Counted from the stretch's first letter, positions 10,913 to 44,596 are shown. The stretch is DNA of 64,000 nucleotides from Escherichia coli (GCF_048403405.1 NZ_CP183129.1), one strand, 5' to 3'. A program made the numbers and translations. Notes: generated by a model from the letters alone, not told the origin.

Positions 10913-10951
10913 GTGGGTGTTGTGTTTAGGGGCGGGGTAAGACTACGGGTC

Positions 10952-10973
10952 AGGGCAAGATTACGAAAGCCCG
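10952..10973. repeat. Copy A of a 22-bp direct repeat (H-rpt 3'-terminus-like)
   Basis: agggcaagattacgaaagcccg; 21 of 22 identical to 11328..11349. Confidence 0.6.
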
Positions 10974-11006
10974 GAGCCTGTCCATCATTCTGTGTAAATG
11001 CCTTTC

Positions 11007-11255
11007 TCAGAAGTGACCGTCAAGGCGGTCACCGAACTCGATAATAAAGCGACTCATCCCTATCCGCCAGTCCTGAAGTGGCATCGTCCATTTTTGCGAC
11101 GCTGACTGGAAAGCCAGCCACACCACTTTTTTCACCGACTCATCTGTCGGGAACACTTTCCGTTTCTTTATCGCATGTGTGATGATGCTATTCAGCGATT
11201 CGATTGCGTTAGTGGTGTAGATAACCTTGCGGATCGCCTCCGGGTACACGAAGAA
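11007..11255 (-). mobile_element. IS256-family (mutator-type) transposase, C-terminal fragment only
   Basis: 80 aa ORF ...YPEAIRKVIYTTNAIESLNSIITHAIKKRKVFPTDESVKK...RFIIEFGDRL matches the conserved C-terminus of IS256-family transposases; no upstream catalytic region. Confidence 0.7.
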
Positions 11256-11327
11256 TGTGGCAACATTCGGCCAGTTTGCCCGCCAGCTGCGACTTATCTG
11301 CGGGTACCGTGCATCCCATTCCTTCCC

Positions 11328-11349
11328 AGGGAAAGATTACGAAAGCCCG
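11328..11349. repeat. Copy B of the 22-bp direct repeat, overlapping the 3' end of the H-rpt transposase gene
   Basis: agggaaagattacgaaagcccg. Confidence 0.6.
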
Positions 11350-12458
11350 CTCCCCGCAAGGACTGACGCCAGATAGTTTCTGTCCATGGCTGCTTTTCGC
11401 ATCTTACGTCTTAACCCTGCCTTGAATACCTTATCATTCGTCAAAATATTAATAGCGATGTGCCGTATCCCTGAAAATAATTCTGCTGCGTTTCCTCTTC
11501 TTATTTTGCAGTCGTCTTCATTCATTACCACGTCCAGACGCCAGTGCAGCTTATTCTCCACGTGCCAGTGGTTTCGGATTGCTGTGGCGAACTTCTCTGC
11601 GGTTAAATCAGCAGAACTAATATAATATCTGACCGTCATTTCTGGCTCTTTCTTTTGTTCTGCTATTATTGACCGAAAGGAGACTGCCACGCATAATTTC
11701 TTCAGACCTTTCCATTCAAACGTGAAATCAATAAGTTCATCAGGGACATCGCAAACAATGTGAAGACGGATTTCTTCTCTGCCGTGACTCTTTTCACTCA
11801 TTGCGTAACTGTCATGCTCTGGATTATTTAATTCTTTCAGCGGAAATTTTTCCTCGAAGGCTTTATTTAGCCGCCCCTGGTTTCCTTTTACAGCGAATAA
11901 ATAATCACCTCCCTGTTTTTGTATCTTCTCTGCAATATCTTTCTGGCAACCCATCGCATCAGTTGTGATGATTTTTCCTTTAATATCCAGCATGTTAAGA
12001 AGTTCTGGGATAGCTGTAATTTCATTGGATTTCTCATCCGTCCTGATCTGTCCGATGACCAGACTGTGCATTGTTGAGAACGCACTAATGACATGAATCG
12101 CTCCCTTGCGGCGACTCTTGTCATAAGAATGCCGGAGTGTTTTTCCATCAATTGCGATGACGTCTTTATCATCTGAAGTATGGCAATCTCGCATCCAGTT
12201 AATAAAGCACTCGTGAAATTTTGCAGGACTGATACAGGATACAACTCTGGCGATGGTATCGTGAACAGGAATACCATTTTCAAAATCACCGTATTGTTTT
12301 AAAAAATCGAGATGTGTTTCCCCAAAATCCTCTATATCTTCCCAACCTTCCGCACCCGAAATAACGGCACAAATAGTCAACAGTAGAATATCCGATAATT
12401 TATGTTCCACTTTCCAGGCTTGTCTGTAATCGGGGATAATAGAAATATGCCCCATCAA
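11337..12458 (-). mobile_element. ISAs1-family transposase (Rhs-associated H-repeat protein)
   Basis: 373 aa ORF ...[43 protein letters not shown]... typical H-rpt; the position of the canonical upstream ATG reads ATA here, so initiation is probably at TTG 12458 or ATG 12455. Confidence 0.85.
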
Positions 12459-12693
12459 TTTTTTAAGTTCTATTTTGTTCTCCTTAATTATGTAAGGAGT
12501 ATTTGATCATGTATAAGCAATAAAAAACAGCTTTAGGTAATGAGGAATATCTCAATTTTTAAACATAAAATGCGAATTATTTAGTACAAAAAAGCAGCGT
12601 TACGTGATCTTTCCCTGCACTTCACCCTAACTTTAATTTAACTTCAAGAAGTATTAAGGCCTCAATAGCGAACTTAATACTTCTTAAAGAATA

Positions 12694-13071
12694 TCACTCC
12701 TGACCAAAATCTTTCCACACTAATGCATGAGACTTTGATTTATCACCCAAAAATTTACTTACATCTTTCCAAAGTAAAGAATTGCTATCGGTCGCAGTGA
12801 CTATTGCCTCTATAAGCCCTGTAGCTACAACTGTGGCCAATTCATCATCAATCGAGACCATACCATCTTCGACATGTTTAAATATTTTTTCTCTTTCAAT
12901 ATCACCCATTTCATAAAAATTTTTTACAATCGTTTTTCCAATCTGAGAGAACAACATAACCACCGGTGGAGTTTCTGGATGCCAGTATTCATTAGCTAAT
13001 GAGACTGTCTCAGACAAAACAGTGGAAAACGATGCCATTTTTTCTATATAATTAGCAATATATTGGTTCAT
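12694..13071 (-). CDS. Putative Rhs-tip immunity protein (125 aa, no recognisable motif)
   Basis: ATG overlaps the Rhs stop by 1 nt (TAATG); AT-rich like the Rhs tip; position immediately downstream of the toxin domain. Confidence 0.6.
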   Translation of the reverse strand: MNQYIANYIEKMASFSTVLSETVSLANEYWHPETPPVVMLFSQIGKTIVKNFYEMGDIEREKIFKHVEDGMVSIDDELATVVATGLIEAIVTATDSNSLLWKDVSKFLGDKSKSHALVWKDFGQE

Positions 13072-42247: not shown

Positions 42248-42523
42248 GTGGCTTCTGTTTCTATCAGCTGTCCCTCCTGTTCAGCTACTGACGGGGTGGT
42301 GCGTAACGGCAAAAGCACCGCCGGACATCAGCGCTATCTCTGCTCTCACTGCCGTAAAACATGGCAACTGCAGTTCACTTACACCGCTTCTCAACCCGGT
42401 ACGCACCAGAAAATCATTGATATGGCCATGAATGGCGTTGGATGCCGGGCAACCGCCCGCATTATGGGCGTTGGCCTCAACACGATTTTCCGCCATTTAA
42501 AAAACTCAGGCCGCAGTCGGTAA
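42248..42523 (+). CDS. insA: IS1 InsA
   Basis: 91 aa [30 protein letters not shown]... Confidence 0.95.
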
Positions 42524-42945
42524 CCTCGCGCATACAGCCGGGCAGTGACGTCATCGTCTGCGCGGAAATGGACGAACAGTGGGGATACGTCGGGGCTAAA
42601 TCGCGCCAGCGCTGGCTGTTTTACGCGTATGACAGGCTCCGGAAGACGGTTGTTGCGCACGTATTCGGTGAACGCACTCTGGCCACACTGGAGCGTCTTC
42701 TAAGCCTGCTGTCGGCCTTTGAGGTCGTGGTATGGATGACGGATGGCTGGCCGCTGTATGAATCCCGCCTGAAGGGAAAGCTGCACGTAATCAGCAAGCG
42801 TTACACTCAGCGAATTGAGCGGCATAACCTGAATCTGAGACAACATCTGGCAAGGCTGGGACGGAAGTCACTGTCGTTCTCAAAATCGGTGGAGCTGCAT
42901 GACAAGGTCATCGGGCATTATCTGAACATAAAACACTATCAGTAA
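42442..42945 (+). CDS. insB: IS1 InsB (expressed as InsAB' by -1 frameshift)
   Basis: 167 aa ORF overlapping insA 3' end in the -1 frame. Confidence 0.9.
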
Positions 42946-43450
42946 GTTGGAGTCATTACCCGGAATTAAACCTCTATATTCAATAATAAAAGGCTCCACG
43001 GAAATATTTTATGATTGGAGAATGTTGATTCTATGCTTCGGTTTCATATCGTTTTCCTTGTTAAATATTCATGTAATTTTACTAACAATAATAAAATCAT
43101 TCTTAATAAAAAAAACAAAGGTAATCAATTTCGCCACAGACATAACAATACAGCTAACTCTTATATTTTTACTAATAGCTATCGTAATAGCACCTTTAAT
43201 AGCTCCTTTTGTCACAGGATATGTCAATGCTAATTGTCACCCCTGCGGTAATAACACGGGGATTTTCCCAGGAGCAATCTATATTAAAAATGGCATAAAA
43301 TGTAATAATGAACATATTTCTCGCAAGGAAGATTAAGCAGTTAAATAATTAAATATTCTAAAACAAACAGTTTTTAACGCCGGATTCCATGTCCTTTCTT
43401 GCACTGTCTTTGTCAGGAACAATTTCTTATGCAAAGAATTTTGTATTATT

Positions 43451-43472
43451 GCCGCCAGAAATTCCTGGCGGC
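43451..43472. terminator. Hairpin between convergent membrane-protein gene and yafT
   Basis: gccgccag-aaattc-ctggcggc perfect inverted repeat in A/T-rich context. Confidence 0.5.
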
Positions 43473-43484
43473 AGATATAATTTA

Positions 43485-44270
43485 TTATTGATAGCGGTTA
43501 ACCAAATCTTTTACCATCGCTTTATAGGTCTTTTGCTTAAGTTGTATGATTTGCTGCTCTGTCATATCAGTCGTACTGGCTTCATTCTTGCCGGGAAATG
43601 GTGGAAGCACTTTATATTCATAATTCACCGGCGACCAGGCAGCCCACTCACCTGTAGCTACATCCACCAGCGTGAATCGCACCAGATAGCGCAGTGAGAT
43701 TGTGTTAGTCAGTTTTTCATTTTTATAATCGGACCATACTGTTGATTTCAGTGCAGTGTCATATTTTCCTGTCTGCAACGTATCCTGGTAAACAATAATC
43801 GCTTTCTGATGGCCTTTTGCCGCCACAAAACGTAATGCCTGCATCCAGTTCATATTTTCAGCACTGGCAACATCCTCGTTCTCATTTTTATCTTTGTTTT
43901 TGTTACAAGTCAGAGGCTTTTGTCTGTCCGGGATACCAGAGAATGTGGAAACAGTATAATATTTTCGCATCTCCTCCTGCATAATGGTTTCCGGTGCGCG
44001 ACTGCCAGACTGGACAAGTATTACGGGAGAATTGAGAGGCACACGAAACTCATCTCCTTCAAGCGCAGCCTGAATATCCTCCTCGGATACAGCCAGAGTG
44101 GTTTCATTACCGAATAAATCTTTGTCTGTCAGTTGCGGGGGAATGTTTTTATTAATATTACTTTGTGTAACTTGAACTTTTTTCTTTTTTTCATCAATAG
44201 AAGATTGAGAGGCACATCCTGCAAGCAGCGAGAATAATACACATATGCAACAAACCTTTTTTGAATTCAT
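43485..44270 (-). CDS. yafT: Lipoprotein YafT
   Basis: 261 aa with lipobox (LLAGC); position adjacent to aspV as I recall for K-12. Confidence 0.75.
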
Positions 44271-44531
44271 AATCGGACACTCCCTCGCCTGTCATAATGA
44301 TTAGAATATTTAGCACTGATAACGGACTCTAATTATATACCCCACTTAAATAATAACAAACAAAATCAACATGAAATATACATTCATTTAATCAATATAA
44401 AATTATTCACTAAAAATATATTTAAGTTGAATGGTTCGATATCATTATTGAATTTTAATAAATGAGACAACAAGCGAGAGTTACGCACTTACGCCAGAGT
44501 AAAATCATTGAACAGAGAAATATCGTGATTT

Positions 44532-44568
44532 AAATGCAAAAAAACCGCAAAATTAAAAATTTTGCGGT
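44532..44568 (-). terminator. Intrinsic terminator downstream of aspV
   Basis: accgcaaaatt / aattttgcggt stem followed on the minus strand by TTTTTTGCATTT. Confidence 0.6.
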
Positions 44569-44596
44569 TCTCTGAACTCATTTTCATGAGTGAATT

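Follow-up and report, generated by a model that had tools for sequence, protein, structure and literature searches.

We identified a structurally complete copy of the T6SS-2 island, a type VI secretion system (T6SS) locus of the OI#7/AGI-1 type, in a 64,000-nucleotide stretch of Escherichia coli DNA (GCF_048403405.1, NZ_CP183129.1), referred to below as the window. We hold this assignment with high confidence; it places the island at positions 10913-44596, its usual site from yafV to yafT-aspV. The first-pass annotation of this DNA had proposed a complete T6SS island of about 33.6 kb between yafV and yafT/aspV, which was confirmed by the open reading frames (ORFs) and their NCBIfam matches. 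The aspV T6SS-2 island is a known locus that has been described repeatedly since 2009, and its gene set, distribution, H-NS silencing and recurrent deletion have already been published. The only unusual feature of the copy examined here is an IS1 element that splits the predicted immunity gene of one of the island's own toxins.

Window ORFs were scanned against NCBIfam models with curated cut-offs. All 13 core T6SS components were present: TssA, B, C, D (Hcp), E, F, G, H (ClpV), I (VgrG), J, K, L and M. Each of these proteins, as well as TagH and VasI, scored above the curated cut-off and covered its profile essentially end to end. The earlier gene list (13 core genes plus tagH, a VasI-like and a VasL-like gene) was thus recovered in full, with full-length NCBIfam matches and, for the VasL-like gene, by annotation. 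These genes and the ORFs that accompany them are as follows (aa, amino acids).

17649-19790, minus strand: vgrG, VgrG spike of 713 aa (TIGR03361, 625.8 bits against a cut-off of 186)
20000-20518, minus strand: hcp1 (TssD), 172 aa (TIGR03344, 207 bits), product 100% identical to ECs_0234 of E. coli O157:H7 Sakai
21215-21715, plus strand: tssB (TIGR03358, 171.5 bits)
21750-21974, plus strand: 74-aa ORF between tssB and tssC, resembling TssC residues 63-102 (43% identity over 40 aa)
22025-23500, plus strand: tssC (TIGR03355, 703.9 bits)
23507-23920, plus strand: tssE (TIGR03357, above cut-off)
23924-25774, plus strand: tssF (TIGR03359, above cut-off)
25738-26820, plus strand: tssG (TIGR03347, above cut-off)
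26845-28125, plus strand: tagH (TIGR03354)
28122-28646, plus strand: tssJ (TIGR03352)
28649-29980, plus strand: tssK (TIGR03353)
29985-30746, plus strand: tssL (TIGR03349)
30755-33556, plus strand: tssH/clpV, 933 aa (TIGR03345, 1118.6 bits against a cut-off of 885)
33553-34296, plus strand: vasI (TIGR03360, 256 bits)
34301-35713, plus strand: tssA (TIGR03362, 498 bits)
35822-39256, plus strand: tssM (TIGR03348, 946.9 bits)
39267-40619, plus strand: VasL-domain gene, the second TssA-like gene (ImpA/TssA-like N-terminus, TssA models below cut-off; 'VasL domain-containing' in RefSeq)
40643-41125, plus strand: hcp2, 160 aa (TIGR03344, 204.5 bits)

These reading frames had also been described as uninterrupted, which held for the 13 core genes, tagH and the VasI-like and VasL-like genes; ykfM, the last of the Hcp2-linked genes, is cut by IS1. 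The first-pass annotation also passed over this IS1, the ISEc1 and IS256-family remnant at the left end, the hairpin behind hcp1 and the identity of the Hcp2-linked pair. By homology, TssJ, TssL and TssM would form the membrane complex, TssE, TssF, TssG and TssK the baseplate and TssA the cap. The TssBC sheath would surround an Hcp tube tipped by VgrG and be recycled by ClpV, and TagH, VasI and VasL would be accessory parts of this contractile injection apparatus.

Gene order from yafV to yafT-aspV was the same in O157:H7 Sakai (NC_002695.2), and amino-acid identity to the Sakai OI#7 cluster was 93-100% for TssB, C, E, F, G, J, K, L, H and M, TagH, VasI, VgrG and Hcp1; the locus is therefore the published T6SS-2 at aspV. 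The name follows the grouping of Journet and Cascales as used in PMC10711316, and the organisation that defines it was found here: hcp-vgrG-rhs divergent from tssB...tssM, a second tssA-like gene, a second hcp and an FHA-domain gene. A two-arm divergent layout had been read from the window at first pass, and both the ORF positions and the Sakai map bear it out. Alignment to K-12 and to pathogenic E. coli, the check suggested at that time, identified the locus as the intact counterpart of a deletion scar in K-12 and the orthologue of Sakai OI#7. Over window positions 6001-42192 the DNA was 99.99% identical to that of E. coli MS 69-1, from which it differed by a single substitution and by a 3-bp indel in rhs (17113-17115) that keeps the frame; no pseudogene is flagged within the cluster in the MS 69-1 RefSeq annotation. 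Of 5,426 complete E. coli genomes, 1,894 (approximately 35%) contained at least 80% of window 9500-34000.

Reference members of T6SS-2 include OI#7 of O157:H7 Sakai and EDL933 (z0243-z0275), AGI-1 of avian pathogenic E. coli O1, Ec042_0210-0226 of enteroaggregative E. coli (EAEC) 042 and the ST410-A locus. The 37-kb aspV-associated T6SS of enterohaemorrhagic E. coli (EHEC) EDL933 is functional yet repressed by H-NS, with Hcp being secreted once hns is mutated (PMC5363993). The third T6SS of EAEC 042, also at aspV, is >95% identical across many pathotypes (PMC2808357). In ST410 the locus, named T6SS-2, has rhsG, two tssA, two tssD and an FHA-domain gene, and a 21-kb deletion removes it in the multidrug-resistant clade (PMC10711316). 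Salmonella SPI-19 is related to both OI#7 and AGI-1, and aspV is known as an insertion hot-spot (PMC2907695).

The window locus agrees with these reference members in site, gene order and orientation and in having two TssA-like and two Hcp genes. Unlike them, it is without orphan rhs fragments and has the IS1 in ykfM. Compared to Sakai OI#7, it has another Rhs C-terminus with another immunity gene, and a Tme/YkfM pair takes the place of ECs_0212-0215. Its Hcp2 shares only 55% identity with the Hcp encoded at this position in Sakai, against about 98% for the machine. In addition, tssA is intact in the window, whereas its Sakai orthologue ECs_0219 (16971-18382 of the extracted Sakai locus) is annotated as a pseudogene and was recovered by tblastn in two pieces. 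Salmonella likewise has T6SS loci at aspV. SPI-19 has been reported as the phylogenetic relative of OI#7 (PMC2907695), while SPI-6 and SPI-20 share the aspV site but represent different T6SS lineages. One S. enterica contig had the order tssH-vasI-tssA-tssM-vasL-hcp-tme-DUF1240...yafT-dnaQ, as in the window, but its Tme was only 63% identical to that of the window and extra DUF1240 genes were present.

Two side observations concern the apparatus genes. The Sakai counterpart (ECs_0232) of the 74-aa ORF at 21750-21974 was 85% identical, compared to approximately 98% for the neighbouring genes, and the ORF has the appearance of an incomplete copy of the 5' part of tssC. Within clpV, positions 32322-32373 form a perfect in-frame hexanucleotide repeat, (CAGAGT)x8.7. 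It encodes a linker, (Glu-Ser)9, near residue 523. The ClpV of Sakai is shorter than the window protein by 10 aa, and the tract is therefore probably length-polymorphic.

The IS1 insertion lies at the hcp2 end of the island, where three features are of interest.

41169-42083, plus strand: tme, 304 aa, gene for a predicted membrane-disrupting T6SS effector of the Tme family, product identical to WP_000908072.1 of MS 69-1
42093-43336, plus strand: ykfM, tmi-like putative immunity gene split by IS1, with codons 1-33 at 42093-42192 and the rest at 42961-43336
42193-42960, plus strand: IS1, 768 bp, insA/insB matching NF033558, terminal inverted repeats GGTGATGCTGCCAACTTACTGAT and ATCAGTAAGTTGGAGTCATTACC, 8-9-bp target duplication

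The element had entered past codon 33 of ykfM, beyond the first transmembrane helix. It was missing at this site from MS 69-1 and from K-12, in which ykfM is intact (9 bp aligned on either side of the insertion point), and the IS1-ykfM junction occurred in none of the 5,426 complete E. coli genomes. The same search found three genomes with an IS1 between ykfM and yafT instead. Since ykfM is split, the Tme immunity gene is probably non-functional in the window strain.

Identification of the 304-aa protein as Tme rests on the context of its homologues together with the literature. The protein itself had no match in Pfam, NCBIfam or PDB. It contains a glycine-rich double hydrophobic segment at approximately residues 205-260, and its homologues were few and confined to Enterobacterales. 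Ten homologues, down to 35% identity, had an invariant D209-V-A-K212, a hydrophobic stretch (approximately 213-258) and D260. This corresponds to the signature of type VI membrane-disrupting effectors (Tme), namely a DxxK motif, a transmembrane helix and a flanking Asp, a family in which two members have been validated experimentally and whose immunity partners (Tmi) are DUF1240 and DUF1240-like proteins (PMC7046647). Supplementary Data 5 of that study lists WP_000908072.1 (Tme domain 122-277, E = 1.7e-37) with the upstream Hcp WP_000002621.1 and the downstream WP_001236628.1, which is YkfM (PMC7046647). In Salmonella, a tme homologue follows hcp and is itself followed by PF06836/DUF1240 genes, and in Rahnella bruchi a tme homologue and a PF06836 partner stand beside an orphan hcp, far from T6SS clusters.

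YkfM starts 9 bp downstream of tme and is a multi-pass membrane protein. It falls below the Pfam PF06836 (DUF1240) threshold itself but shares 49% identity with the PF06836/DUF1240 protein that occupies this position in Salmonella, and position and homology together assign it as a candidate DUF1240-like (Tmi) inner-membrane immunity protein. The second cargo module would thus be an Hcp2-linked membrane-disrupting effector, Tme, paired with YkfM. Its GC content is low (30-38%). At the corresponding slot after hcp2, Sakai has four unrelated small genes (ECs_0212-0215) and no tme-ykfM; a divergent Hcp2 accompanied by different cargo fits an Hcp that is matched to what it carries. Similar to Tme1/Tmi1 and Tme2/Tmi2 of Vibrio parahaemolyticus, the E. 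coli pair combines the DxxK, transmembrane and flanking Asp elements with a position behind a T6SS gene (here hcp) and a downstream gene for a small multi-pass membrane protein that is probably DUF1240-like. However, the N-terminal half of the E. coli member is unrelated to the MIX, PAAR and VgrG delivery domains, and the protein is presumably loaded through Hcp; in the window strain, unlike in the Vibrio pairs, the immunity gene is also disrupted. Only for Vibrio Tme1 and Tme2 has it been shown that secretion depends on the T6SS, that the protein is toxic in the periplasm and depolarises the membrane, and that the cognate Tmi rescues the cell (PMC7046647).

The first cargo module, on the other arm, would consist of a VgrG-linked Rhs protein with a C-terminal putative toxin of about 90 aa and a DUF7674-like immunity partner.

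13071-17573, minus strand: rhs, predicted Rhs effector gene, 1500 aa (NF041261 RHS_core, 2492.9 bits against a cut-off of 2000, residues 1-1257)
12694-13071, minus strand: putative Rhs immunity gene, 125 aa (Pfam DUF7674, E = 5.7e-4), GC 35%, overlapping the rhs stop by 1 nt

The Rhs core ends at a DPxGL boundary (PxxxxDPxGL type) followed by a variable C-terminus of approximately 243 aa; the core is 90% identical to that of Sakai, and the C-terminus is unrelated to Sakai's. At the N-terminus there is a PAARQGD motif, with only a weak match to Pfam PAAR_motif over residues 2-29, and DUF6531 lies at residues 49-126. The C-terminal region (13071-13799), in which no Pfam or NCBIfam domain was found, is composite: a glycine-rich hydrophobic stretch is followed by a CdiA-like pre-toxin segment and then by the toxin domain of about 90 aa. 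In a PDB sequence search, the middle segment matched the CdiA-CT pre-toxin region of uropathogenic E. coli (UPEC; 5J43/5J5V, E about 1e-5). The toxin domain has an invariant pattern, Y-R...G-x-G-S-T...E...T-G...H..K, and also ends Rhs and filamentous-haemagglutinin (CdiA-type) proteins of Escherichia, Salmonella, Yersinia, Gilliamella, Vibrio, Neisseria and Cupriavidus. Its AlphaFold (AF2) model is an all-alpha five-helix bundle (mean pLDDT 86.6), for which the best Foldseek match was CdiA-CT 536 (E = 0.53, TM 0.44-0.51). Searches with Pfam, NCBIfam, PDB sequences and Foldseek assigned no toxin activity to this C-terminus, the CdiA match being to the pre-toxin region only.

On an unrelated contig, a protein 46% identical to the 125-aa partner follows a toxin homologue 67% identical to that of the window, within an orphan toxin-immunity array. 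Given this pairing, the overlap with rhs and the DUF7674 match, the 125-aa gene is likely to encode immunity to the Rhs toxin. An array of orphan cassettes was observed on contig_4916 of ENA ERZ25039478 (3000-8573 of the extract), where Imm42, a homologue of the Rhs C-terminus with DUF7674, and Tox-HNH-EHHH were interleaved with SymE_toxin genes. The window rhs resembles the RhsA-E elements of K-12 in its core, DPxGL boundary, variable C-terminus and overlapping small downstream gene, and in the ISEc1 that comes next. Unlike these elements, it is still joined to vgrG and a full T6SS, its toxin domain lies outside the Pfam families, and part of its C-terminus resembles the UPEC CdiA-CT pre-toxin region.

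Several points weigh against this reading of the island. Intact ORFs in this strain are no proof of activity, and in vitro the orthologous cluster of EHEC is nearly silent (PMC5363993). The PAAR match of Rhs is weak (E = 0.12) and no separate PAAR gene is present, and a Foldseek comparison of the Rhs toxin model with the PDB gave no match below E = 0.5. As for the second module, a Pfam scan of the reconstructed YkfM did not recover DUF1240. The consequence of the IS1 insertion is also less clear-cut than the split suggests: the ORF at 42947-43336, which has a TTG start inside the IS1 end and reads in the ykfM frame, would encode the C-terminal ~122 aa, and a truncated YkfM could therefore still be made.

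The strongest competing explanation, which we consider unlikely though well deserving of weight, is that the island is complete on paper but silenced and in a first stage of decay, that the IS1 in ykfM was tolerated as the system never fired, and that the locus is headed for deletions such as those of K-12 and ST410-B. The interval indeed contains IS1, ISEc1 and an IS256 remnant, and erosion of the locus is common. At 80% or more of each query, ykfM was kept in 2,997 of the 5,426 complete genomes, the 5' part of tme in 2,573 and the left 24.5 kb of the island in only 1,894, so that many lineages appear to have retained the hcp2-tme-tmi end, or the immunity gene only, after losing the machine, in agreement with the ST410 deletion (PMC10711316). 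The K-12-type scar described below was found in 371 of these genomes, K-12 included, Sakai tssA is a pseudogene, and the EHEC cluster is silenced by H-NS (PMC5363993). On the other hand, every structural gene in the window is intact and nearly identical to its relatives, the IS1 junction is private to this strain and may be very recent, and the EHEC orthologue works once de-repressed (PMC5363993).

Another proposal, for which we see little room, is that the 304-aa protein and YkfM are membrane accessory components of the apparatus or unrelated housekeeping genes rather than an effector-immunity pair. The lack of Pfam, NCBIfam and PDB matches for the former and of a Pfam match for the latter would allow this, and a general stress phenotype has been reported for a ykfM::Tn5 mutant of K-12 (PMC2824699). 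However, the 304-aa protein is listed as Tme in the very study that validated two members of the family (PMC7046647) and carries the invariant signature; the Rahnella pair occurs with an orphan hcp away from T6SS clusters, the Sakai slot holds different cargo together with a divergent Hcp2, and the GC content of the two genes is very low. All of these features favour a Tme/Tmi-like pair.

Transcription of the island would diverge from a control region between hcp1 and tssB, and two terminator-like hairpins bear on where it may stop.

20519-21214, both strands: divergent control region, 696 bp, GC 32.6%, with several promoter-like sites on both strands
19960-19991, minus strand: terminator-like hairpin after hcp1, 14-bp stem with 8 GC pairs, followed by the T-run TTTTGTATT
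43449-43474, plus strand: terminator-like hairpin between the convergent ykfM and yafT, 10-bp stem with 7 GC pairs

Junctions along the plus-strand arm measured -37 to +50 nt, except for 108 nt upstream of tssM, and such close packing favours a common transcript from tssB through ykfM; the hairpin at 43449-43474 is likely to mark the end of this long transcription unit, before yafT. On the minus-strand arm, which would run from hcp1 via vgrG and rhs to the immunity gene, the gaps were 209 nt (hcp1-vgrG), 75 nt and -1 nt. The hairpin after hcp1 lies 9 nt past the hcp1 stop. Both this hairpin and the 209-nt gap suggest that transcription from hcp1 may stop, at least in part, ahead of vgrG-rhs, and a single operon of hcp, vgrG and rhs is thus no more than plausible. 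The first-pass annotation had drawn one long plus-strand operon and one hcp-vgrG-rhs operon: operon structure is predicted here from gene positions, with close spacing in favour of the first, and the second is plausible with at least partial termination after hcp1. By analogy with EHEC, the 696-bp control region is probably silenced by H-NS.

The borders of the island are formed by the following features.

10142-10912: yafV, the left neighbour of the island
10951-10973: solo ISEc1 terminal repeat beside yafV, where the variable region begins on the left, a 23-nt direct repeat 96% identical to 11327-11349
11007-11318, minus strand: remnant of an IS256-family transposase gene, retaining only the C-terminal part (positions 266-336 of the 338 in NCBIfam NF033543; 'incomplete' in RefSeq)
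11327-12617, minus strand: complete ISEc1 (ISAs1 family, H-repeat of Rhs elements), 1291 bp, with 25-nt inverted repeats at 11327-11351 and 12593-12617
43485-44270, minus strand: yafT, lipoprotein gene (PF25851 YafT), adjoining aspV in K-12, O157 and Salmonella
44597-44673, minus strand: aspV, tRNA-Asp (GUC), found with ARAGORN, with its 3' end facing the island

The transposase gene of the complete ISEc1 (11337-12473) scored 417.7 bits with the ISAs1 transposase model (cut-off 70). The two ISEc1 ends at 10951-10973 and 11327-11349 bracket a 353-bp piece that holds the IS256-family remnant, and K-12 is without the 364 bp between the two copies. On the right, the island had been described as abutting the 3' end of tRNA-Asp; this 3' end does face the island, but yafT lies between the secretion genes and aspV. 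The reported absence of an integrase was upheld, as none is annotated in the interval in the identical RefSeq sequence and none was found in the NCBIfam scan. With 3 mismatches allowed, the 23-mer at the aspV 3' end occurred in the window only in aspV and aspU, and no att-type repeat was present in the island. A classic tRNA-targeted integrative island was therefore rejected. Since yafT also stands beside aspV/dnaQ in Salmonella, the variable region ends at the ykfM/yafT hairpin and not at the tRNA. Further downstream, a second tRNA-Asp gene (aspU, 52821-52897) and genes for tRNA-Ala and tRNA-Ile (56249-56443) indicate the rRNA operon rrnH, as on the K-12 and Sakai maps.

Comparison with K-12 showed how the island was lost there. 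In K-12 the order is aspV, yafT, ykfM, yafU, yafF, yafV, with yafU and yafF as pseudogenes, and the gene content given for the interval at first pass (yafT, ykfM, yafU and yafF) was right. The accompanying suggestion that these genes are deletion relics was half correct: yafU and yafF are truncated fragments, but yafT and ykfM are intact orthologues in K-12. The K-12 interval aligned to the window in four segments.

49604-42960 of the window: K-12 aspV through most of ykfM
42192-41727 of the window: the rest of ykfM, and yafU
11617-11338 of the window: yafF
10973 of the window downward: yafV onward

At the central K-12 junction, ...AAATCAGCAGAAC/CATAGAATTT... (the slash marks the join), the pentamer AGAAC is common to both parental sequences. 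yafU corresponds to approximately codons 187-304 (the 3' third) of the 304-aa tme gene, and yafF to the last 280 bp of the ISEc1 transposase gene. Truncated genes joined at a microhomology identify the K-12 interval as a deletion scar: illegitimate recombination between a site in the ISEc1 transposase gene and one in tme removed window positions 11618-41726 (30.1 kb) from K-12. The opposite view, that K-12 preserves an ancestral empty site into which a tRNA-targeting element later inserted the island, so that yafU and yafF are no relics, has virtually nothing left to recommend it: a neighbouring tRNA is a known insertion hot-spot (PMC2907695) and the cargo ends of the island are low in GC, but both pseudogenes are 3' fragments of genes that are intact in the window, joined at the 5-bp microhomology, which already refutes it, and there is neither an integrase nor a direct repeat of the aspV 3' end, with yafT separating the cluster from aspV in Salmonella as well.

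As a discovery, the island matters little, since a known system was correctly recognised. The base-exact endpoints of the K-12 deletion nevertheless explain the pseudogenes yafU, a 3' fragment of tme, and yafF, a 3' fragment of the ISEc1 transposase gene, and K-12 ykfM can be placed, by position and homology, in the Tmi/DUF1240-like immunity class. Only one lead is of bench interest: next to an intact Tme and T6SS-2 stands a Tmi-like gene that IS1 has probably inactivated, with the corollary that K-12 ykfM would be an orphan immunity gene. We advance tentatively, and as a distinctly doubtful idea, that the window strain is a natural immunity-null mutant, with T6SS-2, Hcp2 and Tme intact and Tmi cut, and that K-12 ykfM is an orphan defence gene that was retained. 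If so, the K-12 ykfM beside its truncated tme would be a defence against E. coli armed with T6SS-2; the open-access papers found to mention ykfM assign it no such role. For the window strain, the consequence of the IS1 hinges on whether the system is ever active. If the strain is immunity-null and the system fires, sister cells should poison each other, and one of three alternatives should therefore hold: this lineage in effect never uses its T6SS-2 or its Tme, a YkfM reduced to its C-terminal two-thirds and made from the TTG in the IS1 end is still protective, or YkfM is not the immunity determinant. With its putative immunity gene probably knocked out by IS1 and its weapon intact, the strain would be a ready-made natural test of both the Tme/YkfM pair and the activity of T6SS-2.

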